DNA of 64,000 nt from Escherichia coli (GTDB taxonomy: Bacteria; Pseudomonadota; Gammaproteobacteria; Enterobacterales; Enterobacteriaceae), in assembly GCF_048403405.1 (NCBI RefSeq), contig NZ_CP183131.1, one strand, 5' to 3'. Positions 3,416 through 63,724 of this stretch are shown one piece after another. Within the stretch, counting starts at the first letter, position 1, and each line of letters begins with the position of its first letter. Below the pieces are notes generated by a model. The model worked only from the letters and a program-made list of their open reading frames with translations, ran no database searches and had not been told where the DNA came from. The position numbers and the translations under genes are program-made.

Positions 3416-3421
3416 ATACTG

Positions 3422-3445: not shown

Positions 3446-3588
3446 TTCAAAGAAACTGATCTCAGTATCGCGCACGGGGCAGCTGGCCAACGTCGCCGGC
3501 ATCGCGCCGGCAAAAATCGAAAAACAGAAATATCAGCAAGATAGCTTAAACAGGTGTCGGGAAATTTCGTTGAGATATTTTGAAGGAA

Positions 3589-5143: not shown

Positions 5144-5377
5144 GTCAAACGCCTCATTGAGCACCGGCAGTAATCCCTCACCTTCATGGGTCAGCACCAG
5201 CCCGCGCGAGACGCGGGTAAACAGCACACAGCCGAGTTGTTCTTCCAGCGCCCTGACCTGCTGGCTGACGGCGGCATGGGTGACATTCAGCTCAATCGCC
5301 GCGCGGGTAAAACTGAGATGACGGGCGGCGGCCTCAAAGGCGCGCAGCGGGTTAAGGGGGAGATAACGTCTGACCAT
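5144..5377 (-). pseudogene. ampR: ampR (LysR-type regulator) 5' remnant, truncated by IS26
   Basis: LysR HTH N-terminus (MVRRYLPLNPLRAFEAAARHLSFTRAA…) fused into IS26 sequence after about 78 codons; downstream of qnrA1 as in ISCR1-qnrA1 modules. Confidence 0.8.
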
Positions 5378-5562
5378 AATCCACCTGTAAGTTTTTCTTT
5401 AGGGCAGTTGAGTCTTCATAATGCCTCCTTTGAAGGGAAGGTATAACGTCGGCTGCGGCAGCAGAGAAACGGCATTCCGGCGGTAATACTCTGCTATAGC
5501 AGAATCTGCCTTGTTGTAGCGCGGAACTCAAGTGATATTTGCCTCTTGTGTTTGCATTCGAG

Positions 5563-6219: not shown

Positions 6220-6270
6220 ACGGCTTCCTTTAATCAGGGAGGGTGCTAACGGGTATAGGAAGTATAAACC

Positions 6271-8424
6271 ACCTTTTTGCTCCTCATCCGAAGTATCTTA
6301 CCTGAAATTCCCTCACTCGTTTACCGCTCAAGCCCCAATTTTAACTGCCGGTCCAGCCTAAACCGCTCTAATAAGGTTCGATTTGGCGGTAAAATCTCTA
6401 GCCTGATAGCTCGAGAGATACAAACTGCCCCACCGCCCCGTTTAAAAGTTGGCAGTGTTGAGCAGTGTTGGATTTGGGGTCGTCAGTCAAAGAGACGACT
6501 CTGTGATGGATCGAACAGGCTGGGAGTCAGTGGCGGCGCTCGTTCTGGTGGCAGCTCACGCTGCTTGGCGGCATTCGCCTTGGCTGTTTTCTGTTTCAGA
6601 TGCTTGAGAATCTGCTCAATGACCTTCGGATCTTCGATGCTGGCAATCACTTTGACGTGACCGCCGCAGTGTTCGCAGACTTCAATATCAATATTGAAGA
6701 CTCGCTTGAGGCGTTGCATCCAGGTCATGGCGCGGTGGCGCTCTGCAGGACTCTTGTCACGCCAGTTAGTATCGAGACCTTCCGATTTGTCGGGCTTCTT
6801 GCCCCGCTTGGCGGGTGTTACTTGAACTCGGTGTTTGCTGTTCGGTGCAAAGACGCCGTGGAAGCGTGTGAGGTTGACTCGCGGCTTAGGTACCAACGCA
6901 GCGAGTTTGGCGATGAAGTCCAGCGGCTCGAAGATCACATGGGTGGTGCCATTGCGGTACGGAGTTTTGAGCTCGTAACGCACCTGCCCATTGGCGGTTA
7001 ATGCCAGACGTTTTTCTGAAACCGCTGGCCGACTAATGTAGCGACACAAGCGCTCAAGCTTATCCCGCTGATGCGCTTCGGCCATCACACCGGCGTGTAG
7101 CGAGAAACCAGCATGGTTGGCTACTCGACTGCTTGAGTCGGCTTTATCCTCACGCCCTGGCAAGGTTTGCAGGGTGAAGACTTTGCGCCCTTGCTGGGGG
7201 CCGACGGCAATGCGATACGTAACCGAAGCACCATGTAATTGAGTCAGCGTATCGTCTTCGCCCTCTTCCAGTGTCAACCACGTATTCTCGGCATCACGCT
7301 CCAAAATCCCACGCTTTTCCATGCAGCGAGCGATGCGATGGCTGAGGGTGTGAGCGAGCGTATTCAGCTCATCGTAAGTGGGTGCCTTGACACGATGGAA
7401 GCGTTGCTTGCCATAGTCATCTTCGGCATAGACACCATCGAGAAACAGCATGTGGTAGTGGACATTGAGATTTAGCGCGGAGCCAAAGCGTTGGATAAGA
7501 GTCACTGAGCCAGTTTGTGCAGAGGCTTTGGTGTAACCGGCTTTTTTGATCAGATGAGTTGAGAGTGTACGATAGACGATACTCAAGACCTGGCCCATCA
7601 GCTGGGGATGGCGAGCCAGCAAAAAGCGTAGCTGGAAAGGAAAGCTGAGCACCCACTGGCGAATGGGCTCCTTGGGGAAGACTTCGTCTATCAGCAGCGC
7701 CGCACTCTCGGCCATCCGGCGGGCACCGCAGCTAGGGCAAAAGCCGCGTCGTTTACAGCTGAAGGCGACCAGACGCTCGTGATGACAATCCTCGCAGCGA
7801 ACCCGCATGAAACCATACTCCAGACGGCCACATTGGAGGAGGTCGTTGAATTCTTGTTGGATGTAGCGAGGCAGGTGTTGACCTTGGGCTTCGAGTGAGG
7901 CTTTGAAGGCTGGGTAGTGCTGCTCAACCAGCTGGTAGAGCAGCGTCTGGTCGGGTTGGTGGCGTTCGTAACCGTTTGTTTGAGTGGGCGATTGACTCGC
8001 CGTGGCGTTCCTTGCCAGCGACATGGGTATCCTCCGCTGATACTGTGGTTATGTACAGTATCAGCGGCTTGCGTTCAGACGTCCAGTCTGGCCCTAGACA
8101 TCGCTAAATGCTTAACCCGCAATAGCCCTCACGAGTTGTTATCAGCCACTACCGGTTGAGCGAGAAGGTTTTGGGTTCAGGGTGCTATTGCTCCACCAAT
8201 CACAATACTGAAGCCCCAACTGTTATCAGTTGGGGCTTTTTCTTGTCTGTTTGCGGCGGTTGCGTTTTATCGGTAGTCGTCGAGCTCTGCACCATCCCAC
8301 ATAAGAGCTTAACGGTGCGATCTTCAACGCCATCACACAAAACTTTCTTTTTCACGCACAGTCAACTTATTGGATGTTTTATTAACAACCCAAAAGGAGA
8401 TATTTAGCGGGCGGCCGGAAGGTG
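6271..8424 (-). mobile_element. ISCR1: ISCR1 (boundaries approximate)
   Basis: Contains orf513; located directly after sul1 and before qnrA1 as in complex class 1 integrons; ends not verified at nucleotide level. Confidence 0.65.
6483..8024 (-). CDS. orf513: ISCR1 rolling-circle transposase (Orf513)
   Basis: 513 aa, MSLARNATASQSPTQTNGYERHQPDQTLLYQLVEQHY…; IS91-like HUH transposase features. Confidence 0.9.
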   Translation of the reverse strand: MSLARNATASQSPTQTNGYERHQPDQTLLYQLVEQHYPAFKASLEAQGQHLPRYIQQEFNDLLQCGRLEYGFMRVRCEDCHHERLVAFSCKRRGFCPSCGARRMAESAALLIDEVFPKEPIRQWVLSFPFQLRFLLARHPQLMGQVLSIVYRTLSTHLIKKAGYTKASAQTGSVTLIQRFGSALNLNVHYHMLFLDGVYAEDDYGKQRFHRVKAPTYDELNTLAHTLSHRIARCMEKRGILERDAENTWLTLEEGEDDTLTQLHGASVTYRIAVGPQQGRKVFTLQTLPGREDKADSSSRVANHAGFSLHAGVMAEAHQRDKLERLCRYISRPAVSEKRLALTANGQVRYELKTPYRNGTTHVIFEPLDFIAKLAALVPKPRVNLTRFHGVFAPNSKHRVQVTPAKRGKKPDKSEGLDTNWRDKSPAERHRAMTWMQRLKRVFNIDIEVCEHCGGHVKVIASIEDPKVIEQILKHLKQKTAKANAAKQRELPPERAPPLTPSLFDPSQSRLFD

Positions 8425-8428
8425 AATG

Positions 8429-9268
8429 CTAGGCATGATCTAACCCTCGGTCTCTGGCGTCGCGACTGCGAAATTTCGCGAGGGTTTCCGAGAAGGTGAT
8501 TGCGCTTCGCAGATCTCCAGGCGCGTGGGTGCGGACGTAGTCAGCGCCATTGCCGATCGCGTGAAGTTCCGCCGCAAGGCTCGCTGGACCCAGATCCTTT
8601 ACAGGAAGGCCAACGGTGGCGCCCAAGAAGGATTTCCGCGACACCGAGACCAATAGCGGAAGCCCCAACGCCGACTTCAGCTTTTGAAGGTTCGACAGCA
8701 CGTGCAGCGATGTTTCCGGTGCGGGGCTCAAGAAAAATCCCATCCCCGGATCGAGGATGAGCCGGTCGGCAGCGACCCCGCTCCGTCGCAAGGCGGAAAC
8801 CCGCGCCTCGAAGAACCGCACAATCTCGTCGAGCGCGTCTTCGGGTCGAAGGTGACCGGTGCGGGTGGCGATGCCATCCCGCTGCGCTGAGTGCATAACC
8901 ACCAGCCTGCAGTCCGCCTCAGCAATATCGGGATAGAGCGCAGGGTCAGGAAATCCTTGGATATCGTTCAGGTAGCCCACGCCGCGCTTGAGCGCATAGC
9001 GCTGGGTTTCCGGTTGGAAGCTGTCGATTGAAACACGGTGCATCTGATCGGACAGGGCGTCTAAGAGCGGCGCAATACGTCTGATCTCATCGGCCGGCGA
9101 TACAGGCCTCGCGTCCGGATGGCTGGCGGCCGGTCCGACATCCACGACGTCTGATCCGACTCGCAGCATTTCGATCGCCGCGGTGACAGCGCCGGCGGGG
9201 TCTAGCCGCCGGCTCTCATCGAAGAAGGAGTCCTCGGTGAGATTCAGAATGCCGAACACCGTCACCAT
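8429..9268 (-). CDS. sul1: Sulfonamide-resistant dihydropteroate synthase Sul1
   Basis: 279 aa from [21 protein letters not shown]…; overlaps the qacEdelta1 stop (atggtgac); ORF-track N-terminal extension rejected. Confidence 0.92.
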
Positions 9269-9609
9269 GGCGTCGGCCTCCGCAGCGACTTCCACGATGG
9301 GGATCGGGCGAGCAAAAAGGCAGCAATTATGAGCCCCATACCTACAAAGCCCCACGCATCAAGCTTTTGCCCATGAAGCAACCAGGCAATGGCTGTAATT
9401 ATGACGACGCCGAGTCCCGACCAGACTGCATAAGCAACACCGACAGGGATGGATTTCAGAACCAGAGAAAGAAAATAAAATGCGATGCCATAACCGATTA
9501 TGACAACGGCGGAAGGGGCAAGCTTAGTAAAGCCCTCGCTAGATTTTAATGCGGATGTTGCGATTACTTCGCCAACTATTGCGATAACAAGAAAAAGCCA
9601 GCCTTTCAT
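9262..9609 (-). CDS. qacEdelta1: QacEdelta1, truncated SMR efflux protein of the class 1 integron 3'-CS
   Basis: 115 aa, [27 protein letters not shown]…. Confidence 0.92.
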
Positions 9610-9707
9610 GATATATCTCCCAATTTGTGTAGGGCTTATTATGCACGCTTAAAAATAATAAAAGCAGACTTGACCTGATAGTTTGGCTGTGAGCAATTAT
9701 GTGCTTA

Positions 9708-9772
9708 GTGCATCTAACGCCGGAGTTAAGCCGCCGCGCGTAGCGCGGTCGGCTTGAACGAATTGTTAGACA
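9708..9772 (-). other. attC (59-be) of the aadA2 cassette
   Basis: Imperfect inverted repeat catctaacgccggagttaagccgccgcgcgtagcgcggtcggcttgaacgaattgttagac between aadA2 and qacEdelta1. Confidence 0.6.
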
Positions 9773-10564
9773 TCATTTACCAACTGACTTGATGATCTCG
9801 CCTTTCACAAAGCGAATAAATTCTTCCAAGTGATCTGCGCGTGAGGCCAAGTGATCTTCTTTTTGTCCCAGATAAGCTTGCTTAGCTTCAAGTAAGACGG
9901 GCTGATACTGGGCAGGTAGGCGTTTTATTGCCCAGTCGGCAGCGACATCCTTCGGCGCGATTTTGCCGGTTATTGCGCTGTACCAAATGCGGGACAACGT
10001 AAGCACTACATTTCGCTCATCGCCGGCCCAGTCGGGCTGCGAGTTCCATAGCTTCAAGGTTTCCCTCAGCGCCTCGAATAGATCCTGTTCAGGAACCGGG
10101 TCAAAGAATTCCTCCGCTGCCGGACCTACCAAGGCAACGCTATGTTCTCTTGCTTTTGTAAGCAGGATAGCTAGATCAATGTCGATCATGGCTGGCTCGA
10201 AGATACCCGCAAGAATGTCATTGCGCTGCCATTCTCCAAATTGCAGCTCGCGCTTAGCCGGATAACGCCACGGGATGATGTCGTCATGCACGACAAGGGT
10301 GACTTCTATAGCGCGGAGCGTCTCGCTCTCGCCAGGGAAAGCCGAAGCCTCCATAAGATCATTGAGCAATGCTCGCCGCGTCGTTTCATCAAGCTTTACG
10401 GCCACAGTAACCAACAAATCAATATCGCTGTATGGCTTCAGGCCGCCATCCACTGCGGAGCCGTACAAATGCACGGCCAGCAACGTTGATTCCAGATGGC
10501 GCTCAATGACGCTTAGCACCTCTGATAGTTGGTTCGAAATTTCGATGGTCACCGCTTCCCTCAT
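9773..10564 (-). CDS. aadA2: Aminoglycoside (3'')(9) adenylyltransferase AadA2
   Basis: 263 aa, MREAVTIEISNQLSEVLSVIERHLESTLLAVHLYGSAVDGGLKPYSDIDLL…. Confidence 0.88.
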   Translation of the reverse strand: MREAVTIEISNQLSEVLSVIERHLESTLLAVHLYGSAVDGGLKPYSDIDLLVTVAVKLDETTRRALLNDLMEASAFPGESETLRAIEVTLVVHDDIIPWRYPAKRELQFGEWQRNDILAGIFEPAMIDIDLAILLTKAREHSVALVGPAAEEFFDPVPEQDLFEALRETLKLWNSQPDWAGDERNVVLTLSRIWYSAITGKIAPKDVAADWAIKRLPAQYQPVLLEAKQAYLGQKEDHLASRADHLEEFIRFVKGEIIKSVGK

Positions 10565-10569
10565 GATGT

Positions 10570-10860
10570 CTAACGGGCGAGGTAAGCCGACCGCAGAATG
10601 CGGGTCGGCTTGACCGAAATGTTAGAACCAGAAGCCAAAACGGATAACTTGAATTTGGCGACGGGCGCTAACCGTGAAAAAACGCTGCGCCACCGAGGCG
10701 GCACAGCACTGCAAAAACGATAGCTGCTTGCGCTTGCTACGCAAGGGCTAGAGGCCAAAAAGACTGAAAACCTGCGCAGCCCATGCAGGCGAAGCCCGGA
10801 AAAAAGGCAAAACAGGCACTGAATAACGCCTGAAAAGCTAAATGCCGTTTGAATAAACAT
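10570..10860 (-). CDS. gcuF: Gene cassette of unknown function (gcuF / orfF)
   Basis: 96-aa ORF between dfrA12 and aadA2; the dfrA12-gcuF-aadA2 array is well established; attC-like repeat at 10567-10627. Confidence 0.65.
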   Translation of the reverse strand: MFIQTAFSFSGVIQCLFCLFSGLRLHGLRRFSVFLASSPCVASASSYRFCSAVPPRWRSVFSRLAPVAKFKLSVLASGSNISVKPTRILRSAYLAR

Positions 10861-10971
10861 GAGCTAAATAAAGCTGGGTTTCAGTGGTGCTAACGTTGGA
10901 CGTAACGAGAGCCGGAGCGCAGCGGAGGGAACCAAAATGCGCAGCATTTTGGCGTCCCGTTGACGGAATGG

Positions 10972-11469
10972 TTAGCCGTTTCGACGCGCATAAACGGAGT
11001 GGGTGTACGGAATTACAGCTTGAATGGTTTCGGTTGAGACAAGCTCGAATTCTGTTTCGTTGAGCATTGGGAAGAAGGCGTCACCCTCGAAGGTTTGATG
11101 TACCTCAGATAGAAACACGCCGTGGGCGTGAGGTAGTGCCAGAGTGTATATCTCAGCTCCGCCCGCGACGTAGAGTTCATTGCCGAGTTCGGATGCCAAA
11201 GCGATAGCGTGCGACAGCGTTGAAACAACTACGCAGCCAGTGGCGCGGTAGTTAGCTTGGCGTGAGATTACCAATGTGTGACGGTTCGGTAGAGGCTTGC
11301 CGATAGACTCAAAGGTCTTTCGCCCCATGACAACGACTTTTCCCTCAGTGAGTCTGCGAAAAATCTTCTGCTCACCCGGAATTTTCCAGGGGATATTAGG
11401 ACCATTGCCAATAACCCGATTGGCTCCCATCGCAGCAACGAGATAAATGCGTACTGATTCCGAGTTCAT
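10972..11469 (-). CDS. dfrA12: Trimethoprim-resistant dihydrofolate reductase DfrA12
   Basis: 165 aa, MNSESVRIYLVAAMGANRVIGNGPNIPWKIPGEQKIFRRLTEGKVVVMGRKTFESIG…. Confidence 0.87.
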   Translation of the reverse strand: MNSESVRIYLVAAMGANRVIGNGPNIPWKIPGEQKIFRRLTEGKVVVMGRKTFESIGKPLPNRHTLVISRQANYRATGCVVVSTLSHAIALASELGNELYVAGGAEIYTLALPHAHGVFLSEVHQTFEGDAFFPMLNETEFELVSTETIQAVIPYTHSVYARRNG

Positions 11470-11540
11470 ATGGCTAACTTTGTTTTAGGGCGACTGCCCT
11501 GCTGCGTAACATCGTTGCTGCTCCATAACATCAAACATCG
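11470..11540 (-). other. attI1 integration site
   Basis: Canonical attI1 sequence (reverse complement …gccctaaaacaaagttagcc) abutting the first cassette. Confidence 0.7.
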
Positions 11541-11613
11541 ACCCACGGCGTAACGCGCTTGCTGCTTGGATGCCCGAGGCATAGACTGTACAAAAAAACA
11601 GTCATAACAAGCC

Positions 11614-12627
11614 ATGAAAACCGCCACTGCGCCGTTACCACCGCTGCGTTCGGTCAAGGTTCTGGACCAGTTGCGTGAGCGCATACGCTACTTGCATTAC
11701 AGCTTACCAACCGAACAGGCTTATGTCCACTGGGTTCGTGCCTTCATCCGTTTCCACGGTGTGCGTCACCCGGCAACCTTGGGCAGCAGCGAAGTCGAGG
11801 CATTTCTGTCCTGGCTGGCGAACGAGCGCAAGGTTTCGGTCTCCACGCATCGTCAGGCATTGGCGGCCTTGCTGTTCTTCTACGGCAAGGTGCTGTGCAC
11901 GGATCTGCCCTGGCTTCAGGAGATCGGAAGACCTCGGCCGTCGCGGCGCTTGCCGGTGGTGCTGACCCCGGATGAAGTGGTTCGCATCCTCGGTTTTCTG
12001 GAAGGCGAGCATCGTTTGTTCGCCCAGCTTCTGTATGGAACGGGCATGCGGATCAGTGAGGGTTTGCAACTGCGGGTCAAGGATCTGGATTTCGATCACG
12101 GCACGATCATCGTGCGGGAGGGCAAGGGCTCCAAGGATCGGGCCTTGATGTTACCCGAGAGCTTGGCACCCAGCCTGCGCGAGCAGCTGTCGCGTGCACG
12201 GGCATGGTGGCTGAAGGACCAGGCCGAGGGCCGCAGCGGCGTTGCGCTTCCCGACGCCCTTGAGCGGAAGTATCCGCGCGCCGGGCATTCCTGGCCGTGG
12301 TTCTGGGTTTTTGCGCAGCACACGCATTCGACCGATCCACGGAGCGGTGTCGTGCGTCGCCATCACATGTATGACCAGACCTTTCAGCGCGCCTTCAAAC
12401 GTGCCGTAGAACAAGCAGGCATCACGAAGCCCGCCACACCGCACACCCTCCGCCACTCGTTCGCGACGGCCTTGCTCCGCAGCGGTTACGACATTCGAAC
12501 CGTGCAGGATCTGCTCGGCCATTCCGACGTCTCTACGACGATGATTTACACGCATGTGCTGAAAGTTGGCGGTGCCGGAGTGCGCTCACCGCTTGATGCG
12601 CTGCCGCCCCTCACTAGTGAGAGGTAG
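11614..12627 (+). CDS. intI1: Class 1 integron integrase IntI1
   Basis: 337 aa, [53 protein letters not shown]…; divergent from the cassettes. Confidence 0.95.
11701..11729 (-). promoter_or_regulatory. Cassette promoter Pc, weak variant with extended -10 (PcW TGN-10)
   Basis: Minus strand reads TGGACA-N17-TAAGCT, with TGG immediately upstream of the -10 (gttggtaagct). Confidence 0.75.
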
Positions 12628-12804
12628 GGCAGCGCAAGTCAATCCTGGCGGATTCACTACCCCTGCGCGAAGGCCATCGGTGCCGCATCGAACGGCCGGT
12701 TGCGGAAAGTCCTCCCTGCGTCCGCTGATGGCCGGCAGCAGCCCGTCGTTGCCTGATGGATCCAACCCCTCCGCTGCTATAGTGCAGTCGGCTTCTGACG
12801 TTCA

Positions 12805-12829
12805 GTGCAGCCGTCTTCTGAAAACGACA
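12805..12829. repeat. IRi, 25-bp integrase-end inverted repeat of the class 1 integron
   Basis: gtgcagccgtcttctgaaaacgaca is the reverse complement of the canonical IRi; 20 bp later the sequence is cut by IS26. Confidence 0.75.
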
Positions 12830-12849
12830 ATGGAGGTGGTAGCCGAGGG

Positions 12850-13669
12850 GGCACTGTTGCAAAGTTAGCGATGAGGCAGCCTTTTGTCTTATTCAAAGGC
12901 CTTACATTTCAAAAACTCTGCTTACCAGGCGCATTTCGCCCAGGGGATCACCATAATAAAATGCTGAGGCCTGGCCTTTGCGTAGTGCACGCATCACCTC
13001 AATACCTTTGATGGTGGCGTAAGCCGTCTTCATGGATTTAAATCCCAGCGTGGCGCCGATTATCCGTTTCAGTTTGCCATGATCGCATTCAATCACGTTG
13101 TTCCGGTACTTAATCTGTCGGTGTTCAACGTCAGACGGGCACCGGCCTTCGCGTTTGAGCAGAGCAAGCGCGCGACCATAGGCGGGCGCTTTATCCGTGT
13201 TGATGAATCGCGGGATCTGCCACTTCTTCACGTTGTTGAGGATTTTACCCAGAAACCGGTATGCAGCTTTGCTGTTACGACGGGAGGAGAGATAAAAATC
13301 GACAGTGCGGCCCCGGCTGTCGACGGCCCGGTACAGATACGCCCAGCGGCCATTGACCTTCACGTAGGTTTCATCCATGTGCCACGGGCAAAGATCGGAA
13401 GGGTTACGCCAGTACCAGCGCAGCCGTTTTTCCATTTCAGGCGCATAACGCTGAACCCAGCGGTAAATCGTGGAGTGATCGACATTCACTCCGCGTTCAG
13501 CCAGCATCTCCTGCAGCTCACGGTAACTGATGCCGTATTTGCAGTACCAGCGTACGGCCCACAGAATGATGTCACGCTGAAAATGCCGGCCTTTGAATGG
13601 GTTCATGTGCAGCTCCATCAGCAAAAGGGGATGATAAGTTTATCACCACCGACTATTTGCAACAGTGCC
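12850..13669 (-). mobile_element. IS26: IS26, complete 820 bp (tnp26 12902-13606, minus strand)
   Basis: Terminal IRs at 12850-12863 and 13656-13669; identical Tnp26 ORF; inverted relative to the copy at the window start. Confidence 0.97.
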
Positions 13670-13962
13670 GTATCACTCATGGCCTGTTTCGGCTTCACAA
13701 AAAAATGGTTCATTTTGTGCGCAAACGTCCAGCTTTCAGAATCGCCAAAAGCATGAGTGATATAGGTTTCGTCAGGCGCGACAACAATGTGGGTAGCCAC
13801 ACCGGCGATAGCGTCAATTTTGACCACATTAACAGGGTTATAAACAACGCTTTTAATGCGATAGTCATAAGGATAATTGCGGCCAACCTCAAGCGCCATA
13901 ACGTTAGTGGCCGCGCCTCCCAGGACTGACAAAACGACTGCTGAAAGAAGTAGTTTTTTCAT
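13670..13962 (-). pseudogene. traO: traO (VirB9-like), 5' portion including signal peptide; interrupted by IS26
   Basis: MKKLLLSAVVLSVLGGAATNVMA signal peptide then VirB9 N-domain; ORF reads into the IS26 IR; 8-bp gtatcact at the junction. Confidence 0.8.
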
Positions 13963-54422: not shown

Positions 54423-54450
54423 GAGAACGTTCCTTTTAATTTGTAATGTT

Positions 54451-54495
54451 TACGATAATTACGATAATTACGATAATTACGATAATTACGATAAT
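54451..54495. repeat. Tandem 9-bp repeat (tacgataat) x5 plus degenerate copies
   Basis: Five perfect head-to-tail copies 29 bp upstream of the KfrA-like start. Confidence 0.9.
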
Positions 54496-54608: not shown

Positions 54609-54646
54609 GGGGGAGCCCGCAGAATTCGGAAAAAATCGTACGCTAA
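54609..54646. repeat. 38-bp terminal inverted repeat of a Tn1721-type (Tn21 subgroup) transposon
   Basis: ggggagcccgcagaattcggaaaaaatcgtacgctaag; the tnpA stop lies inside it. Confidence 0.8.
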
Positions 54647-56159
54647 GGTTTTCCGGGCATCCGTAAGGGCCGAAACTTCCCGTCTTCCAGTCTGCGGCTC
54701 TGCCGCCAGACGTAATCGCCGGTTAGGTTGATGTGCTCCCAGCCCAGCGGCGACAGGAATTGCAGCAGCTCGCCGTCCACCGGCTTGCCGGCCTCGACCA
54801 ACCCCTGGGTGGCGCGTTCCAGGTACACCGTGTTCCACAGCACGATAGCCGCCGTCACCAGGTTGAGGCCGCTGGCCCGGTAGCGCTGCTGCTCGAAGCT
54901 CCGATCCCTGATTTCCCCAAGGCGGTTGAAGAACACCGCCCTGGCCAGCGAGTTGCGCGCCTCACCTTTGTTCAGGCCGGCATGCACGCGGCGGCGCAGT
55001 TCAACACTTTGCAGCCAGTCCAGGATGAACAGCGTGCGCTCGATCCGGCCCAGCTCGCGCAGGGCCACGGCCAGTCCGTTCTGGCGCGGGTAGCTGCCGA
55101 GCTTGCGCAGCATCAGCGAGGCGGTGACGGTGCCCTGCTTGATCGAGCTGGCCAGGCGCAGGATGTCGTCCCAGTGGGCACGCACGTGCTTGATGTTCAG
55201 GGTGCCGCCGATCAGCGGGCGCAACGTCGGGTAGGCTTGCACGCCCTGCGGCACGTACAGCTTGGTTTCGCCGAGGTCGCGGATGCGCGGCGCGAAGCGG
55301 AAGCCTAGCAGGTGCATCAGGGCAAAGACGTGATCGGTGAAGCCGGCCGTGTCGGTGTAGTGCTCCTCGATCCGCAGGTCGGACTCGTGGTACAGCAGGC
55401 CGTCGAGCACATAGGTGGAATCGCGGACGCCGACATTCACCACGCGGGTGCTGAACGGCGCGTACTGGTCGGAGATATGGGTATAGAACAGCCGTCCCGG
55501 CTCGCTACCGTACTTCGGGTTGACGTGCCCGGTGCTCTCGCCCCGGCCACCCGCGCGGAAGCGCTGGCCATCGGAGGATGAGGTCGTGCCGTCGCCCCAG
55601 TGGGCGGCAAAGGCGTGGCGATACTGGTGGTTGACCAGCTCGGCCAAGGCCGCCGAATAGGTTTCGTCGCGGATGTGCCAGGCTTGCAGCCAGGACAGCT
55701 TGGCGTAGGTCAGGCCGGGGCTCGACTCGGCCATCTTGGTCAGCCCGAGGTTGATCGCATCACCGAGGATTGCGGACAGCAGCAACGTCCTGTCTTTGGC
55801 CTCGGCCCCGTCCTTCAAGTGGGTGAAGTGGCGGCTGAAGCCCGTCCAGTCGTCCACGTCCATCAGCAGTTCGGTGATCTTGATGCGCGGCAGTAACTGG
55901 CTGGTTTGGTCGATCAGCGCCTGCGCCCGATCCGGCACCGCCGCATCCAGCGGGGTGATTTTCAGCCCTGACTCGGTGAGGATGGCATCGGGCAGCTCGT
56001 TGTCCTTGGCCAGGCGGGTGACGGTGGCCAACTGCTCGTCCAGCAGCTGCAAACGCTCTTCCAGGTACTGGTCGCTGTTCGGGTTGATCGCCAGGGGCAG
56101 GGCCTGCTCGCGCTTGAGTGCGGCGAACTTCTCGGCCGGCAGCAGGTAGTCGTCGAAGT
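54643..56159 (-). pseudogene. tnpA: Tn3-family transposase tnpA, 3' portion (Tn1721-like), 5' end removed by IS26
   Basis: 505 codons of TnpA C-terminus ending in the IR; ORF reads into the IS26 IR at 56160. Confidence 0.85.
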
Positions 56160-56979
56160 GGCACTGTTGCAAATAGTCGGTGGTGATAAACTTATCATCC
56201 CCTTTTGCTGATGGAGCTGCACATGAACCCATTCAAAGGCCGGCATTTTCAGCGTGACATCATTCTGTGGGCCGTACGCTGGTACTGCAAATACGGCATC
56301 AGTTACCGTGAGCTGCAGGAGATGCTTGCTGAACGCGGAGTGAATGTCGATCACTCCACGATTTACCGCTGGGTTCAGCGTTATGCGCCTGAAATGGAAA
56401 AACGGCTGCGCTGGTACTGGCGTAACCCTTCCGATCTTTGCCCGTGGCACATGGATGAAACCTACGTGAAGGTCAATGGCCGCTGGGCGTATCTGTACCG
56501 GGCCGTCGACAGCCGGGGCCGCACTGTCGATTTTTATCTCTCCTCCCGTCGTAACAGCAAAGCTGCATACCGGTTTCTGGGTAAAATCCTCAACAACGTG
56601 AAGAAGTGGCAGATCCCGCGATTCATCAACACGGATAAAGCGCCCGCCTATGGTCGCGCGCTTGCTCTGCTCAAACGCGAAGGCCGGTGCCCGTCTGACG
56701 TTGAACACCGACAGATTAAGTACCGGAACAACGTGATTGAATGCGATCATAGCAAACTGAAACGGATAATCGGCGCCACGCTGGGATTTAAATCCATGAA
56801 GACGGCTTACGCCACCATCAAAGGTATTGAGGTGATGCGTGCACTACGCAAAGGCCAGGCCTCAGCATTTTATTATGGTGATCCCCTGGGCGAAATGCGC
56901 CTGGTAAGCAGAGTTTTTGAAATGTAAGGCCTTTGAATAAGACAAAAGGCTGCCTCATCGCTAACTTTGCAACAGTGCC
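56160..56979 (+). mobile_element. IS26: IS26 variant copy, 820 bp (tnp26 56223-56927)
   Basis: Terminal IRs intact; carries Tnp26 Gly177Ser (…ECDHSKLK…) and a synonymous ctg>ctt change shared with the copy at 59588-60407. Confidence 0.96.
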
Positions 56980-57025
56980 TTTAAGCGTGCATAATAAGCC
57001 CTACACAAATTGGGAGTTAGACATC

Positions 57026-57625
57026 ATGAGCAACGCAAAAACAAAGTTAGGCATCACAAAGTACAGCATCGTGACCAACAGCAACGATTCCGTCACACTG
57101 CGCCTCATGACTGAGCATGACCTTGCGATGCTCTATGAGTGGCTAAATCGATCTCATATCGTCGAGTGGTGGGGCGGAGAAGAAGCACGCCCGACACTTG
57201 CTGACGTACAGGAACAGTACTTGCCAAGCGTTTTAGCGCAAGAGTCCGTCACTCCATACATTGCAATGCTGAATGGAGAGCCGATTGGGTATGCCCAGTC
57301 GTACGTTGCTCTTGGAAGCGGGGACGGACGGTGGGAAGAAGAAACCGATCCAGGAGTACGCGGAATAGACCAGTTACTGGCGAATGCATCACAACTGGGC
57401 AAAGGCTTGGGAACCAAGCTGGTTCGAGCTCTGGTTGAGTTGCTGTTCAATGATCCCGAGGTCACCAAGATCCAAACGGACCCGTCGCCGAGCAACTTGC
57501 GAGCGATCCGATGCTACGAGAAAGCGGGGTTTGAGAGGCAAGGTACCGTAACCACCCCATATGGTCCAGCCGTGTACATGGTTCAAACACGCCAGGCATT
57601 CGAGCGAACACGCAGTGATGCCTAA
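57026..57625 (+). CDS. aac(6')-Ib-cr: Aminoglycoside/fluoroquinolone acetyltransferase AAC(6')-Ib-cr
   Basis: 199 aa; both signature substitutions present: Trp102Arg ([10 protein letters not shown]) and Asp179Tyr (TTPYGPAVY); ORF-track N-terminal extension into IS26 rejected. Confidence 0.9.
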
Positions 57626-57691
57626 CCCTTCCATCGAGGGGGACGTCCAAGGGCTGGCGCCCTTGGCCGCCCCTCATGTCAAACGTTGGGC
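57620..57691 (+). other. attC of the aac(6')-Ib cassette
   Basis: Inverse core gcctaac at 57620, core gttgggc at 57685; imperfect inverted repeat. Confidence 0.55.
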
Positions 57692-57755
57692 GAACCCGGA
57701 GCCTCATTAATTGTTAGCCGTTAAAATTAAGCCCTTTACCAAACCAATACTTATT

Positions 57756-58586
57756 ATGAAAAACACAATACATATCAACTTCGCTATTTTTTTAATAATT
57801 GCAAATATTATCTACAGCAGCGCCAGTGCATCAACAGATATCTCTACTGTTGCATCTCCATTATTTGAAGGAACTGAAGGTTGTTTTTTACTTTACGATG
57901 CATCCACAAACGCTGAAATTGCTCAATTCAATAAAGCAAAGTGTGCAACGCAAATGGCACCAGATTCAACTTTCAAGATCGCATTATCACTTATGGCATT
58001 TGATGCGGAAATAATAGATCAGAAAACCATATTCAAATGGGATAAAACCCCCAAAGGAATGGAGATCTGGAACAGCAATCATACACCAAAGACGTGGATG
58101 CAATTTTCTGTTGTTTGGGTTTCGCAAGAAATAACCCAAAAAATTGGATTAAATAAAATCAAGAATTATCTCAAAGATTTTGATTATGGAAATCAAGACT
58201 TCTCTGGAGATAAAGAAAGAAACAACGGATTAACAGAAGCATGGCTCGAAAGTAGCTTAAAAATTTCACCAGAAGAACAAATTCAATTCCTGCGTAAAAT
58301 TATTAATCACAATCTCCCAGTTAAAAACTCAGCCATAGAAAACACCATAGAGAACATGTATCTACAAGATCTGGATAATAGTACAAAACTGTATGGGAAA
58401 ACTGGTGCAGGATTCACAGCAAATAGAACCTTACAAAACGGATGGTTTGAAGGGTTTATTATAAGCAAATCAGGACATAAATATGTTTTTGTGTCCGCAC
58501 TTACAGGAAACTTGGGGTCGAATTTAACATCAAGCATAAAAGCCAAGAAAAATGCGATCACCATTCTAAACACACTAAATTTATAA
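57756..58586 (+). CDS. blaOXA-1: Class D beta-lactamase OXA-1
   Basis: 276 aa from MKNTIHINFAIFLIIANIIYSSASASTDISTVASPLFEGTEGCFLLYD…; STFK active site. Confidence 0.93.
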   Translation: MKNTIHINFAIFLIIANIIYSSASASTDISTVASPLFEGTEGCFLLYDASTNAEIAQFNKAKCATQMAPDSTFKIALSLMAFDAEIIDQKTIFKWDKTPKGMEIWNSNHTPKTWMQFSVVWVSQEITQKIGLNKIKNYLKDFDYGNQDFSGDKERNNGLTEAWLESSLKISPEEQIQFLRKIINHNLPVKNSAIENTIENMYLQDLDNSTKLYGKTGAGFTANRTLQNGWFEGFIISKSGHKYVFVSALTGNLGSNLTSSIKAKKNAITILNTLNL

Positions 58587-58602
58587 AAAATCTAATGGCA
58601 AA

Positions 58603-58695
58603 ATCGCCCAACCCTTCAATCAAGTCGGGACGGCCAAAAGCAAGCTTTTGGCTCCCCTCGCTGGCGCTCGGCGCCCCTTATTTCAAACGTTAGAC
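58603..58695 (+). other. attC of the blaOXA-1 cassette (approximate)
   Basis: Inverted-repeat region ending in core gttagac. Confidence 0.5.
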
Positions 58696-58723
58696 GGCAA
58701 AGTCACAGACCGCGGGATCTCTT

Positions 58724-59356
58724 ATGACCAACTACTTTGATAGCCCCTTCAAAGGCAAGCTGCTTTCTGAGCAAGTGAAGAACCCCAATATCAAAGTTGG
58801 GCGGTACAGCTATTACTCTGGCTACTATCATGGGCACTCATTCGATGACTGCGCACGGTATCTGTTTCCGGACCGTGATGACGTTGATAAGTTGATCATC
58901 GGTAGTTTCTGCTCTATCGGGAGTGGGGCTTCCTTTATCATGGCTGGCAATCAGGGGCATCGGTACGACTGGGCATCATCTTTCCCGTTCTTTTATATGC
59001 AGGAAGAACCTGCATTCTCAAGCGCACTCGATGCCTTCCAAAAAGCAGGTAATACTGTCATTGGCAATGACGTTTGGATCGGCTCTGAGGCAATGGTCAT
59101 GCCCGGAATCAAGATCGGGCACGGTGCGGTGATAGGCAGCCGCTCGTTGGTGACAAAAGATGTGGAGCCTTACGCTATCGTTGGCGGCAATCCCGCTAAG
59201 AAGATTAAGAAACGCTTCACCGATGAGGAAATTTCATTGCTTCTGGAGATGGAGTGGTGGAATTGGTCACTGGAGAAGATCAAAGCGGCAATGCCCATGC
59301 TGTGCTCGTCTAATATTGTTGGCCTGCACAAGTATTGGCTCGAGTTTGCCGTCTAA
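58724..59356 (+). CDS. catB3: Chloramphenicol acetyltransferase CatB3 (full length)
   Basis: 210 aa, hexapeptide-repeat acetyltransferase, [33 protein letters not shown]…. Confidence 0.88.
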
Positions 59357-59410
59357 CAATTCAATCAAGCCGATGCCGCTTCGCGGCACGGCTTATTTCA
59401 GGCGTTATGC
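59351..59410 (+). other. attC of the catB3 cassette (approximate)
   Basis: gtctaac … gttatgc inverted-repeat structure. Confidence 0.5.
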
Positions 59411-59440
59411 AGCCAAATCCCAACAATTAAGGGTCTTAAA

Positions 59441-59587
59441 ATGGTAAAAGATTGGATTCCCATCTCTCATGATAATTACAAGCAGGTGCAAGGACCGTTC
59501 TATCATGGAACCAAAGCCAATTTGGCGATTGGTGACTTGCTAACCACAGGGTTCATCTCTCATTTCGAGGACGGTCGTATTCTTAAG
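59441..59587 (+). pseudogene. arr-3: arr-3 (rifampin ADP-ribosyltransferase), 3'-truncated by IS26 after about 49 codons
   Basis: MVKDWIPISHDNYKQVQGPFYHGTKANLAIGDLLTTGFISHFEDGRIL then IS26 IR. Confidence 0.85.
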
Positions 59588-60407
59588 GGCACTGTTGCAA
59601 AGTTAGCGATGAGGCAGCCTTTTGTCTTATTCAAAGGCCTTACATTTCAAAAACTCTGCTTACCAGGCGCATTTCGCCCAGGGGATCACCATAATAAAAT
59701 GCTGAGGCCTGGCCTTTGCGTAGTGCACGCATCACCTCAATACCTTTGATGGTGGCGTAAGCCGTCTTCATGGATTTAAATCCCAGCGTGGCGCCGATTA
59801 TCCGTTTCAGTTTGCCATGATCGCATTCAATCACGTTGTTCCGGTACTTAATCTGTCGGTGTTCAACGTCAGACGGGCACCGGCCTTCGCGTTTGAGCAG
59901 AGCAAGCGCGCGACCATAGGCGGGCGCTTTATCCGTGTTGATGAATCGCGGGATCTGCCACTTCTTCACGTTGTTGAGGATTTTACCCAGAAACCGGTAT
60001 GCAGCTTTGCTGTTACGACGGGAGGAGAGATAAAAATCGACAGTGCGGCCCCGGCTGTCGACGGCCCGGTACAGATACGCCCAGCGGCCATTGACCTTCA
60101 CGTAGGTTTCATCCATGTGCCACGGGCAAAGATCGGAAGGGTTACGCCAGTACCAGCGCAGCCGTTTTTCCATTTCAGGCGCATAACGCTGAACCCAGCG
60201 GTAAATCGTGGAGTGATCGACATTCACTCCGCGTTCAGCAAGCATCTCCTGCAGCTCACGGTAACTGATGCCGTATTTGCAGTACCAGCGTACGGCCCAC
60301 AGAATGATGTCACGCTGAAAATGCCGGCCTTTGAATGGGTTCATGTGCAGCTCCATCAGCAAAAGGGGATGATAAGTTTATCACCACCGACTATTTGCAA
60401 CAGTGCC
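59588..60407 (-). mobile_element. IS26: IS26, 820 bp (tnp26 59640-60344, minus strand)
   Basis: Terminal IRs intact; shares the synonymous SNP with the copy at 56160. Confidence 0.97.
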
Positions 60408-60729
60408 GTAATTATTTAGGATATAGCTCTGTGATTTAGTCTTTTTAGGGCGTTTATTTATGTCTTTATGCTGTAATGTCGGTGCTGATTTGGTCTTCAA
60501 TAAGGCGATTTTTAGCCCGCTTTTTCCGGGGGGATGAAATGTTATTGGATTGCTAAATGATTTCAAAAAAGGGGTAACATAGAGCGGGGATTAGTGTGGC
60601 GAGGCGCAGGTTTCCGATGGCAGGCTAAACGCAAAAAATGCGCTTTTTAGCCGGTGATGAGGTGAGGCCGGGAGGGGATGCGTCGCCGATCACAGTTTAC
60701 AACAGGGTTTGATAACGGGAGGAAAAGTC

Positions 60730-61146
60730 ATGCTGCAGGGATTGAATCATCTGACGCTGGCGGTCAGCGATCTGGCGTCAAGCCTGGCATTTTATCAGCA
60801 GTTACCTGGAATGCGCCTGCACGCCAGCTGGGATAGCGGAGCCTATCTCTCCTGTGGGGCGCTGTGGCTGTGCTTGTCGCTGGATGAGCAGCGGCGTAAA
60901 ACGCCCCCTCAGGAAAGCGACTATACCCACTACGCCTTCAGCGTGGCGGAAGAAGAGTTTGCCGGGGTGGTGGCTCTGCTGGCGCAGGCGGGGGCTGAGG
61001 TATGGAAAGATAACCGCAGTGAAGGGGCGTCTTACTATTTTCTCGACCCTGACGGCCATAAGCTGGAGCTGCATGTGGGGAATCTGGCGCAGCGGCTGGC
61101 CGCCTGTCGCGAACGCCCCTACAAGGGGATGGTCTTTTTTGATTGA
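60730..61146 (+). CDS. fosA3: Fosfomycin-inactivating glutathione transferase FosA3
   Basis: 138 aa from [43 protein letters not shown]…; classic IS26-fosA3-orf1-orf2-orf3delta-IS26 context. Confidence 0.85.
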
Positions 61147-61150
61147 CGGG

Positions 61151-61669
61151 TTAGTTCAGCTTACTGCCGGATTTCAACGTGCAGATCCACAGCGGTGAAT
61201 TGATAGAGCTGAGCAAGATAGCCTTTTCGTTGAGCTTCTGAGCGTTGAGAAACAGCCCGTCGTGGCTGTCGGACATCTCGCGCATAAAGTAGTCGAAAAT
61301 CACGTTCGGCGATTCATCAATCGAGGAGGCGCTCGATTCCCACTGATTGATGCGGTAATGACGCTCGGTGGCCGAGATGCGTTTGCTGCTGTAGGTAAAC
61401 TTCACGTAGCGTTGCAGGTAGAGCCAGCCGGCGGCGGAGTCGGTGTAACCTTCGACCACCATCGAGCCCTTACCCTGCGCGCCAAAATTGAAGTGAATAT
61501 TGCCGTTAACGTTCTCTTTGTCCATGTTCTCAAAGCGCATGATGCCCTTAGTGGAACAGCTCATGACACCCGCGTTGTCGGCAGGCAGCAGCCGCCAGGC
61601 GCTAAACGCGGCGGCGGCAATAAATACCAGAACGCAGAGGGCAAAGAACGGACGCGGCGCGAGTCTCAT
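61151..61669 (-). CDS. Hypothetical exported protein (orf1 of the fosA3 module)
   Basis: 172-aa ORF with N-terminal hydrophobic segment. Confidence 0.5.
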   Translation of the reverse strand: MRLAPRPFFALCVLVFIAAAAFSAWRLLPADNAGVMSCSTKGIMRFENMDKENVNGNIHFNFGAQGKGSMVVEGYTDSAAGWLYLQRYVKFTYSSKRISATERHYRINQWESSASSIDESPNVIFDYFMREMSDSHDGLFLNAQKLNEKAILLSSINSPLWICTLKSGSKLN

Positions 61670-62457
61670 TACGGCTTCCAGGAGTAGTAAAAGTAGTTAT
61701 CGCAATAGCTGAACGGGTTATCTTCATGCATGGCGCAGTGGGCAAGGAACACGCGCCCCAGCCCGTTGGTTTCGAGCCGATCGCCGTAGAAGAAAAGAAA
61801 ACGTTCACCGGGTTTACAGGCAATATTCAGCCGCTGGCGTACCTCATCGAAGTTTTTGCCGTAGGACTCTTCACTGACCGAACGTCGCATTTCATCGCTG
61901 GCCAGCAGTTCGCACTGGCTATGGCTGAGGCGGGTCAGCGCGATAGGCTGGGATTCACTGATGCCGACCAGACTGAAGGCAACCAGAAGCAGGGCAATGG
62001 TGAGCAAGCAGGCTCCGGCCATGTACCAGCACATCCCGCGAGCATGTGCGGAGCGCGGTGCGTCTGGCGTTGTCGTAACGGGCGGCGGTTCGGCAGGCGT
62101 CTGTTGTGGTGAAACCGGCGGCGCGTCGTCCAGCGCTTCGATAATGACCTCGGGATTAAGCTGCAAATAGCCGCGCGAGACGGTGACGATGATGTTATCG
62201 ACGCCGTAATGGCGAAAGGTCTTCCGCAGCATGCTGAGATACTGATTCAGATTGCTGTTGGATGAGGTTAATCCATTGTCATCCCAGACTTTTTTCAGAA
62301 CATCTTCCCGGCTGACAATCTCGGTATGGCGCAGAAAATAGTTAAACAGGGCGCTGGCGGTGAGGGATAGCTGGCTGTCCGGTTCATCGCTTTGCGGCAG
62401 CGTCAGGGTTCCGTCGGTGGCGTCGTAGATAAAACGGGCATTGATGTTGTAGCGCAT
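61669..62457 (-). CDS. CadC/ToxR-like membrane-bound transcriptional regulator (orf2 of the fosA3 module)
   Basis: N-terminal winged-helix region, Pro-rich linker, single TM segment. Confidence 0.55.
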   Translation of the reverse strand: MRYNINARFIYDATDGTLTLPQSDEPDSQLSLTASALFNYFLRHTEIVSREDVLKKVWDDNGLTSSNSNLNQYLSMLRKTFRHYGVDNIIVTVSRGYLQLNPEVIIEALDDAPPVSPQQTPAEPPPVTTTPDAPRSAHARGMCWYMAGACLLTIALLLVAFSLVGISESQPIALTRLSHSQCELLASDEMRRSVSEESYGKNFDEVRQRLNIACKPGERFLFFYGDRLETNGLGRVFLAHCAMHEDNPFSYCDNYFYYSWKP

Positions 62458-62476
62458 CGCGGCCTCAGTCTGTGCT

Positions 62477-62904
62477 TCACGCGGGAAGCGTCATTTTATT
62501 CAGGGAGTCAACCAGCGCGCGACGGTGGTCGGCGCTCATGGTGATCCCTTCCGTCAACTCCGAAAGCCAGATGCCGTCAGCGGCGTAGCGCACCAGCGTG
62601 CCGGTTGGGCTGTTATCCAGCTCATCGCCCTGCGCCAGTTTCTCCAGCATCCAGTCGCGCCAGCATTTGCGCAGCACCGGTTCATCGGGCATTGCCAGCG
62701 ACAAAACCATAAGCTGGCGGCTTTCATGGGTGTCCGTGAGATCCGCCAGATAGTTCAGATAGGCGCGGGTAAACCGGCCATAGCTCACGCCATCCTGTTG
62801 CATCAGCGCGGTAATCGCTTCTTCCATGATTGCCAGCAGACGCGCGAACAGGGCGAATATTAGCGCCTGCTTGTTCGGGAAATGGTGGATAAGGCCGCCT
62901 TTAC
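62477..62904 (-). pseudogene. TetR-family regulator, 5'-truncated by IS26 (orf3delta of the fosA3 module)
   Basis: C-terminal ligand-binding region only; ORF start lies inside the IS26 IR. Confidence 0.6.
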
Positions 62905-63724
62905 GGCACTGTTGCAAAGTTAGCGATGAGGCAGCCTTTTGTCTTATTCAAAGGCCTTACATTTCAAAAACTCTGCTTACCAGGCGCATTTCGCCCAGGG
63001 GATCACCATAATAAAATGCTGAGGCCTGGCCTTTGCGTAGTGCACGCATCACCTCAATACCTTTGATGGTGGCGTAAGCCGTCTTCATGGATTTAAATCC
63101 CAGCGTGGCGCCGATTATCCGTTTCAGTTTGCCATGATCGCATTCAATCACGTTGTTCCGGTACTTAATCTGTCGGTGTTCAACGTCAGACGGGCACCGG
63201 CCTTCGCGTTTGAGCAGAGCAAGCGCGCGACCATAGGCGGGCGCTTTATCCGTGTTGATGAATCGCGGGATCTGCCACTTCTTCACGTTGTTGAGGATTT
63301 TACCCAGAAACCGGTATGCAGCTTTGCTGTTACGACGGGAGGAGAGATAAAAATCGACAGTGCGGCCCCGGCTGTCGACGGCCCGGTACAGATACGCCCA
63401 GCGGCCATTGACCTTCACGTAGGTTTCATCCATGTGCCACGGGCAAAGATCGGAAGGGTTACGCCAGTACCAGCGCAGCCGTTTTTCCATTTCAGGCGCA
63501 TAACGCTGAACCCAGCGGTAAATCGTGGAGTGATCGACATTCACTCCGCGTTCAGCCAGCATCTCCTGCAGCTCACGGTAACTGATGCCGTATTTGCAGT
63601 ACCAGCGTACGGCCCACAGAATGATGTCACGCTGAAAATGCCGGCCTTTGAATGGGTTCATGTGCAGCTCCATCAGCAAAAGGGGATGATAAGTTTATCA
63701 CCACCGACTATTTGCAACAGTGCC
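62905..63724 (-). mobile_element. IS26: IS26, 820 bp (tnp26 62957-63661, minus strand)
   Basis: Terminal IRs intact; standard Tnp26 sequence. Confidence 0.97.

Follow-up and report, generated by a model that had tools for sequence, protein, structure and literature searches.

IS26 copies are nearly always identical, and this makes the history of a resistance island hard to read. Partridge and co-workers reportedly treated IS26 sequence variants as markers of recombination history in 2011. The window studied here (the whole stretch of 64,000 nucleotides that was analyzed) carries an aac(6')-Ib-cr/blaOXA-1/catB3 module between two IS26 copies that share a base difference. Does this difference record the movement of the module, and does a second one, present in only one of the two copies, alter the transposase? 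It has been shown that single-base differences tell which IS26 copy took part and reveal hybrid or exchanged copies (Harmer et al., 2022; PMC9602291); our analysis resembles that work in reading such differences between copies as history.

A BLAST search of 56160-56979 against the window revealed five complete 820-bp IS26 copies and one 85-bp end fragment. The complete copies were labelled A to E by position: A (4324-5143, + strand), which served as the reference, B (12850-13669, -), C (56160-56979, +; tnp26 at 56223-56927), D (59588-60407, -; tnp26 at 59640-60344, -), and E (62905-63724, -). The sixth, partial element (1-85, +) consists of the last 85 bp (IRR end), is cut by the window edge and covers neither of the variable positions. 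Base-by-base comparison showed that copies A, B, and E are mutually identical and canonical; their sequence is also that of the IS26 in thousands of database records, in which the marker base is the sole difference from the query. Each of the five is 820 bp long and ends in GGCACTGTTGCAAA and its reverse complement (14-bp perfect terminal repeats). [quoted passage not shown] In all these respects the copies resemble canonical IS26 (X00011), from which copy C differs by two bases and copy D by one.

The two differences of copy C from A, B, and E lie at IS positions 168 (G>T, window 56327) and 592 (G>A, window 56751). Copy D has only the first (window 60240, read as A on the + strand), and its Tnp26 is wild-type. 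Position 168 is the third base of codon 35 (CTG>CTT, Leu, silent), and position 592 is the first base of codon 177 (GGC>AGC, Gly>Ser); G177S leaves the catalytic residues and the motif intact. The alignment thus confirmed what the initial annotation had reported, namely that the IS26 copies are not identical, that the silent change is common to the copies at 56160 and 59588 and absent from the other three complete copies, and that Gly177Ser is confined to the copy at 56160. Its statement that G177S is distinct from the known G184N change is also correct: Gly184 is kept in 5/5 copies, so none of them is the G184N form, IS26-v1 / IS15-delta-1.

Copies C and D enclose a cassette-array remnant (56980-59587, +), in which annotation of identical DNA places aac(6')-Ib-cr (57026-57625), blaOXA-1 (57756-58586), a complete catB3 (58724-59356), and a truncated arr-3 (59441-59587). 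The IRR of copy C adjoins aac(6')-Ib-cr. Its IRL adjoins a tnpA that copy C truncates, part of a Tn3-family (TnAs1/Tn1696-type) remnant with the terminal inverted repeat and 3' tnpA (54610-56159, -; NF033527, RefSeq annotation). A familiar counterpart is pEC958 (NZ_HG941719.1), an IncF ST131-type plasmid with an IS26-flanked aac(6')-Ib-cr/blaOXA-1/truncated-catB3 module, which shares with the window the IS26/aac(6')-Ib-cr junction TTTAAGCG, the order of the cassettes, and the inverted orientation of the two IS26 copies. The form in the window is longer, with a complete catB3 and a piece of arr-3, and is flanked by T168 alleles, whereas the common form is flanked by canonical IS26. The window has also undergone a further, private loss: every other retrieved long-form module has an arr-3 remnant longer by 100 bp.

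T168 was detected in 34 PLSDB plasmids and in 40/5,821 IS26-bearing E. coli records (~0.7%). Carriers are mostly East and South-East Asian, and the junctions are many and different. The allele is concentrated in the long-form module (aac(6')-Ib-cr, blaOXA-1, complete catB3, truncated arr-3); it also adjoins mph(A), fosA3, intI1, and plain IncC backbone, DNA unrelated to the module. With T168, the truncated-tnpA junction (GTCGAAGT beside the IRL) was found in the window and in the related loci L001, L004, L010, L012, and L020, and recurs in IncC and IncHI2 plasmids; the truncated-arr-3 junction was found with T168 in L001 and L003-L007. Copies C and D fit this group, whose members are canonical IS26 except for a T at position 168 and recur at related junctions. 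The allele is not an artefact, since it is seen in independent assemblies, and we conclude that T168 is a real, rare allele marking a minor IS26 lineage. The substitution was not found named in the literature searched and may have been catalogued earlier in surveys of IS26 variants.

It is formally possible that T168 arose by independent mutation in C and D. However, the same base underwent the same substitution in both copies, and the chance of two independent mutations giving the same base change is about 1 in 2,460 (820 x 3), so the shared SNP reflects descent or copying and not coincidence. The same T168 pair also occurs in independent assemblies, and T168 stands at many other junctions. 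We regard independent mutation as vanishingly improbable; the recurrence of T168 at related junctions effectively refutes it. Shared junctions and geography, rather than a phylogeny, suggest that the allele has a single origin. Such a rare silent change gives a handle on which IS26 copy, and hence which donor, built a junction: T168 connects IncC plasmids found in Taiwan and Thailand with plasmids of the IncHI2, IncI1, and IncF types from China, Korea, Vietnam, and Mexico. The position-168 and G177S variants offer a practical tracing marker and no new biological system or concept.

T168 does not mark the aac(6')-Ib-cr/blaOXA-1/catB3 module in general, as a distinct IS26 lineage bounding it might have implied. 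The IS26/aac(6')-Ib-cr junction is present in about 1,000 PLSDB plasmids; T168 was found there in only 6, and nearly all of the others are canonical. The closest relative, NZ_CP129693.1 (L001), an IncC sequence of K. pneumoniae from Taiwan, has T168 on both sides and differs from the window over 14 kb by one substitution (A592), one 9-bp repeat unit, and 100 bp beside copy D. Among the long-form modules, T168 is present on both sides (T/T) in L001, L003, L004, L005, and L019, G/T in L006 and L007, T/G in L008 and L020, and G/G in L014-L016. The inner junctions TTTAAGCG and CATAGTTG are identical between the long-form loci, and 11 of the compared loci show 100% identity over the 2,608-bp interior. 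With all four combinations around an identical interior, the flanking IS26 copies must have been exchanged or converted in place, and T168 shows that this has happened often to the OXA-1 module. The T168 pair is therefore a lineage marker, but its alleles reassort. The earlier proposal that the module moved as one unit bounded by a distinct IS26 lineage stands insofar as the 4.35-kb IS26/module/IS26 block with T168 on both sides recurs, with different outer flanks, in L001, L003, L004, L005, and L019; it fails insofar as the flanking alleles are not fixed to the module.

As a whole, the locus is probably best explained by ordinary IS26 micro-variation in an IS26-rich resistance island of an IncC-type plasmid. 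G168T would have arisen once in some IS26, and the minor allele would then have spread, mainly in East and South-East Asia. Every copy-in event produces a further IS26, and entire copies are exchanged through IS26-to-IS26 recombination, either conservative or homologous. In one long-form sub-lineage both inverted flanking copies may have come to carry T168, after which the 4.35-kb T/T block would have passed between replicons inside larger IS26-bounded pieces. The flanking copies continue to be replaced, the allele at position 168 staying with the DNA beside the nearby IRL end. No target duplications that could trace the route of the inverted block to its new flanks survive in the loci compared.

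Alternatively, the two inverted IS26 copies, which lie 2.6 kb apart, may have produced the T/T state locally, through gene conversion or a recombinational flip. One T168 copy would then have converted its partner, and the pair would say nothing about a module travelling with both. Single-sided states are available as precursors, since T/G and G/T forms with identical junctions exist. In L019 the truncated-tnpA flank lies on the opposite IS26 as compared with the window, so the segment can flip between inverted copies. In addition, the two-sided association of T is weak in the 18 PLSDB long-form modules (table 4/2/2/10, Fisher p = 0.11, with unfetched single-mismatch matches assumed to be G168). 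We nevertheless consider local conversion somewhat unlikely: the T/T unit occurs in at least five outer-flank combinations, on IncC, IncC/IncR, and IncF plasmids and on one chromosome, and spread from a single origin is a more parsimonious account than conversion happening repeatedly. Conversion may still have been the first step in such a spread.

Several modes of movement were considered and rejected. A classical compound transposon moving as a unit does not fit, the outer flanks being unmatched in the window and in related loci; no 8-bp duplication was found outside the whole unit in the window, L001, L003-L008, L014-L016, L019, or L020. Likewise, C and D do not form a pseudo-compound transposon, as they are inverted (+ / -) with their IRR ends pointing toward the module. 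Inverted and lacking target duplications, the two copies cannot together release the module as an IS26 translocatable unit. Replicative inversion was considered as the origin of the pair, and a match between an inner flank and the reverse complement of an outer flank was sought; none was found in the window or in 13 related loci. None of the window's IS26 copies is flanked by a direct 8-bp target duplication of its own; the loss of such flanks is expected after secondary IS26 events and is no argument against IS26 identity.

IS26 has been active in the plasmid to which the window belongs. The IRR of copy D is the exact endpoint of the 100-bp deletion. A virB9-like gene is split by an inversion accompanied by an inverted 8-bp target duplication, and such a duplication connects copy B with the partial copy at 1-85. 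The IRL of copy B abuts the N-terminal part of the virB9-like gene; its IRR adjoins the intI1 of a complex integron (dfrA12-aadA2 / ISCR1-qnrA). Copies D and E, in direct orientation, enclose a fosA3 segment as in a pseudo-compound transposon (60408-62904, +; by the annotation of L001, fosA3 at ~60730-61146 and then two ORFs on the - strand). This segment is missing in L020, where a single IS26 is left, with the outer flank of copy E (AAATGCTC) and the G168 of copy E. The allele at position 168 thus follows the IRL flank.

The change at position 592 is far rarer than T168. A 61-mer with A592 was found in 0/5,815 E. coli records (22,025 IS26 places) and in 2 PLSDB plasmids. The exact G177S protein (WP_125097877.1) is encoded on 2 contigs; the wild type and G184N are each encoded on at least 1,000. 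The database search proposed in the initial annotation, for the SNP pair around the module, was successful only in part: T168 on both sides recurs, but neither PLSDB nor the E. coli complete-genome set has a record that combines T168 with A592. L002, a contig carrying the exact G177S protein, has a different context and G168. G177S stands on the same G168 background in L017 and L018, indicating that it arose independently in these three loci. The sequence data point to G177S being, most likely, a recent and near-neutral mutation. It would be a private G>A transition in the lineage of the window's plasmid, neutral or mildly impairing and without descendant copies.

A592 could also be an error made during consensus calling or polishing, affecting a single copy of a repeat that the assembly contains at least six times. 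The base is private to the window, where it affects a single copy, and is absent from the near-identical L001 and from all other fetched T168-bearing loci. Repeats are hard to polish, and a GATC site, where long reads are prone to errors, lies 3 nt from the position. On the other hand, no other substitution separates the window from L001 over 14 kb, and the two remaining differences are of a structured kind (a deletion beside an IS and a change in repeat units). Differences this few and this structured indicate a clean assembly with real divergence. The same G>A is seen in independent records, and a systematic context error would strike all copies. We consider an error unlikely and G177S probably a genuine mutation.

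A different possibility is that G177S alters Tnp26 activity, either raising it as G184N does or crippling copy C. TU excision required one particular IS26 copy in intact form, implying that the transposase acts in cis (PMC4676283). Because the main substrate of Tnp26 is the IS encoding it, altered activity would shift the stability or mobility of the OXA-1 module. G184N of IS26-v1 / IS15-delta-1 is described as enhancing activity (Pong et al., 2019, as cited in PMC6807381 and PMC8477213). Both variants replace a glycine by a point change in or just after the E173 helix; G184N differs in affecting residue 184 and not 177, in needing two base changes, and in its abundance. In an AF2 model (pLDDT 92.7) residues 170-184 form one helix, in which residue 177 is four after the catalytic E173 and three before the invariant K180, one turn on and on the same helical face. 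Outside the IS26 clade, Arg occupies this position in most family members, which suggests that it faces DNA. One turn from E173 and occupied by Arg in most of these relatives, residue 177 may allow a functional effect. In UK farm Klebsiella plasmids, moreover, the G177S copy later gained W16C, or R11S/T46A/D138N.

Nevertheless, an altered activity that affects the module appears distinctly unlikely. Homologues have G, R, A, or F at residue 177, which falls outside the conserved columns, the invariant ones being D78, D138, E173, D175, and K180; the change from Gly to Ser is small. Unlike G184N, the allele is found extremely rarely and shows no multiplication, whether in the window or outside it, and four wild-type copies in the same plasmid supply Tnp26. 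It is very unlikely that G177S measurably changes Tnp26 activity, or the choice between copy-in and targeted events, and so represents a second natural activity variant beside G184N. L017 and L018 were considered as a test of inactivation by G177S, the five substitutions there being all non-synonymous; this test was rejected, as 5/5 is expected about a quarter of the time by chance. G177S would be important only if transposase activity were changed, and nothing in the comparisons made here points to that. We favor a substitution that would be functionally neutral or nearly so.

No Ser was found at position 177 among the 150 representatives examined. A sequence search of solved structures returned only weak matches to retroviral integrases, and a fold search returned the ISCth4 transposase and integrases; no IS6-family structure on which residue 177 could be placed was found among them. 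By helix register, and judging from published alignments, we take residue 177 to correspond approximately to Lys156 of HIV-1 integrase (E152+4), with K180 near K159.

BLAST of the element at 56160-56979 against the window recovered five complete IS26 copies of 820 bp: copies A (4324-5143, plus strand), B (12850-13669, minus), C (56160-56979, plus), D (59588-60407, minus) and E (62905-63724, minus). A sixth copy is truncated by the edge of the window, with its final 85 bp present at 1-85. Comparison of the five complete copies revealed that A, B and E are identical in sequence. Copy D differs from them by one change, G>T at IS26 position 168 (T168; the canonical allele is G168), which is silent in the third base of the Leu35 codon (CTG>CTT). 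Copy C carries two changes, the same position-168 G>T and G>A at position 592 (A592; GGC>AGC), which converts Gly177 to Ser in the 234-aa transposase Tnp26. Gly184 is retained in all copies. The initial annotation, which assigned the silent SNP to C and D but not to A, B or E, and G177S to C, was right in every detail. A complex class 1 integron (qnrA, ISCR1, sul1, qacEdelta1, an aadA gene, dfrA12 and intI1; 5563-12627) is located between copies A and B.

Copy C cuts short a Tn3-family (TnAs1/Tn1696-type) tnpA, with the 38-bp terminal repeat of that element at 54610-54647. Rightward of C the order is aac(6')-Ib-cr, blaOXA-1, complete catB3, the first 147 bp of arr-3, copy D, a fosA3 segment and copy E. 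Copies C and D form an inverted pair whose IRR ends point toward the module, and D and E are direct repeats. No direct 8-bp target duplication was found at any IS26 copy in the window. It has been shown that IS26 makes cointegrates only, either through copy-in or through the targeted conservative reaction of one IS26 with another, and that translocatable units arise only from directly oriented pairs (PMC4676283, PMC6807381). Copies C and D therefore cannot jointly excise the module, nor does this inverted pair make up a mobile unit of the IS26 kind.

Base variants of IS26 have already been used to identify the copy involved in an event (PMC9602291); T168 and A592 are each present in public records, and this kind of observation is familiar. 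A 61-base probe with the SNP at its centre matched T168 exactly in 34 PLSDB plasmids (the remaining 4,966 of the 5,000 best-scoring records had one mismatch) and in 40 of 5,821 IS26-bearing records among E. coli complete genomes (about 0.7%). A 761-bp probe that began at the SNP and crossed the IS26/aac(6')-Ib-cr junction was fully covered in roughly 1,000 PLSDB plasmids (estimated from 13 of 60 evenly spaced rows). None of these was identical, six had a single mismatch and the rest had two, which meant canonical IS26 in every junction inspected base by base. So few T168 alleles among about 1,000 plasmids sharing the junction mean that T168 does not characterise the widespread OXA-1 module as such. 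The allele is concentrated in the long form, in which catB3 is whole and the module ends inside arr-3; arr-3-side T168 was detected in 6 of the 18 PLSDB plasmids having the long-form arr-3/IS26 junction.

The 2,608 bp between the IS26 copies are 100% identical in every module-bearing locus fetched (among L001-L020), and the inner junctions are constant (TTTAAGCG, plus CATAGTTG in the full 2,708-bp version). Around this unchanged module all four combinations of position-168 flank alleles were seen: T/T in L001, L003 (IncF, Mexico), L004, L005 and L019 (E. coli chromosome, Taiwan); G/T in L006 (IncL/M, Vietnam) and L007 (IncF, Thailand); T/G in L008 (IncC, Thailand) and L020 (E. coli, Taiwan); and G/G in L014-L016 (IncF; Thailand, Germany and Spain). 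Since the T168 background is below 1% and T/T units occur in at least five different outer-flank combinations, both flanking copies must at least sometimes accompany the module in transfer. From the mixed forms it follows that IS26 copies undergo replacement or conversion in place. L020 illustrates the process: the fosA3 segment is absent, and the single remaining IS26 has the inner flank of D, the outer flank of E (AAATGCTC) and the G168 of E. Thus, of the proposal that the module moved as one unit with a distinct IS26 lineage, the lineage stands, as T168 is a true marker of a small IS26/module sub-lineage, but the alleles reassort.

The IRL end is the closer one to position 168 (168 bp, against 652 bp to IRR), and the allele accordingly remains with the flank on that side. 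The truncated-tnpA/GTCGAAGT/IRL junction agrees with this: it has T168 in the window, L001, L004, L010 (an IncC plasmid without the OXA-1 module) and L012 (Salmonella pC629, an IncHI2 plasmid from a chicken isolate, China). In IncI1 plasmids of Chinese and Korean origin T168 adjoins mph(A) and fosA3 as well. At L012 5864-6683 one T168 IS26 connects the outer flank of window copy C (truncated tnpA, GTCGAAGT) with the inner flank of copy B, CCCTCGGC, past which lies intI1-dfrA12-aadA2; in the window 43 kb separates the two junctions, which belong to separate copies with different alleles. In L019 (E. coli ECKH-100, NZ_CM181230.1 4145853-4158613) the T/T module and adjoining IncC backbone lie within chromosomal dppA, and it is the IS26 on the arr-3 side that has the truncated-tnpA flank, so the module has the opposite orientation to that in the window. 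In pHNAH4-1 (L009, 4974-5863) a T168 IS26 has TTTAAGCG at its IRL, as the last 8-mer of an 890-bp fragment comprising truncated intI1/attI1 plus a 3'-CS-like part; in the window TTTAAGCG (56980-56987) adjoins the IRR of copy C. The two flanks resemble the halves of an IS26 insertion that originally took place upstream of aac(6')-Ib-cr and gave an 8-bp duplication.

The nearest record is NZ_CP129693.1 (L001), a K. pneumoniae IncC plasmid from Taiwan, in which both module-flanking IS26 have T168 and a third copy is canonical, as in the window. Over 14 kb the two differ at three places only: A592, one unit of the 9-bp tandem repeat TTACGATAA (54450-54494; five units in the window versus four), and 100 bp at copy D. 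The repeat sits between a DNA-binding protein gene and the Tn3-family terminal repeat. The 100 bp between arr-3 codon 49 and IS26 are missing in the window (junction 59587/59588) and kept in every other long-form module retrieved; all 18 full-length PLSDB matches to the 871-bp arr-3/IS26 query span 971 bp. One edge of the loss coincides exactly with the IRR terminus of copy D, the pattern expected of an IS26 adjacent deletion.

Intramolecular copy-in is known to produce deletions, or inversions generating a new inverted copy (PMC7986276). In the window a virB9-like gene has been broken into two pieces. The C-terminal piece (101-685; profile 95-248) is next to the IRR of the partial copy (1-85), and the N-terminal piece (13618-13962; profile 9-95) adjoins, in inverted orientation, the IRL of copy B (12850-13669). 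The 8-bp flanks, AGTGATAC and GTATCACT, are mutual reverse complements, a sequence signature of IS26 intramolecular replicative inversion of 86-12849. The split and the 100-bp loss show that IS26 has been active in this lineage. No compound-transposon-type duplication was present at any site compared in the window and the fetched module loci. Most likely T168 had a single origin; it would have multiplied through copy-in events and whole-copy exchange, and would have come to flank one long-form module on either side, through replacement or through conversion between the inverted copies. The T/T module would afterwards have moved onward within larger IS26-bounded segments.

In the collections searched, T168 on both sides of the module recurs; T168 and A592 together on a single element were not found. 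The A592 probe had no exact match in 5,815 E. coli records (22,025 places) and matched two PLSDB plasmids. The exact G177S protein (WP_125097877.1) is on two contigs in a large protein collection, in which wild-type and G184N Tnp26 are each on at least 1,000. Within the window's lineage G177S is private; that A592 is a consensus error in a repeat appears unlikely. Elsewhere G177S occurs on a G168 background in unrelated contexts, in L002 (E. coli) and two UK farm Klebsiella plasmids, so the change arose more than once.

Tnp26 has the catalytic triad D78/D138/E173 and the E-DH---K signature of its family (PMC8477213, PMC6807381). Aligning 23 homologues shows D78, D138, E173, D175 and K180 to be invariant, H176 nearly so and residue 177 variable; among 150 family representatives it is Gly in the IS26 clade and Arg, Ala or Phe in others, and Ser was not seen. 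Structure searches found no solved IS6-family structure, the nearest folds being the ISCth4 transposase and retroviral integrases. In an AlphaFold2 model (mean pLDDT 92.7) residues 170-184 form one helix, so residue 177 lies one turn past E173 on the same face; the position is probably DNA-facing. An effect on transposase activity is possible but unsupported. Because the change is small, the position variable and no descendants are left, G177S is best read as near-neutral or mildly harmful.

The G177S copies of the Klebsiella plasmids have further changes: W16C in one, and in the other R11S, T46A and D138N, the last of which eliminates a catalytic Asp. These are unusually many for IS26 and may indicate a decaying copy or an assembly-quality problem. 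Both plasmids (L017, NZ_CP099261.1; L018, NZ_CP057068.1) are IncF and have the same IS26 insertion, at 4440-5259 in each locus.
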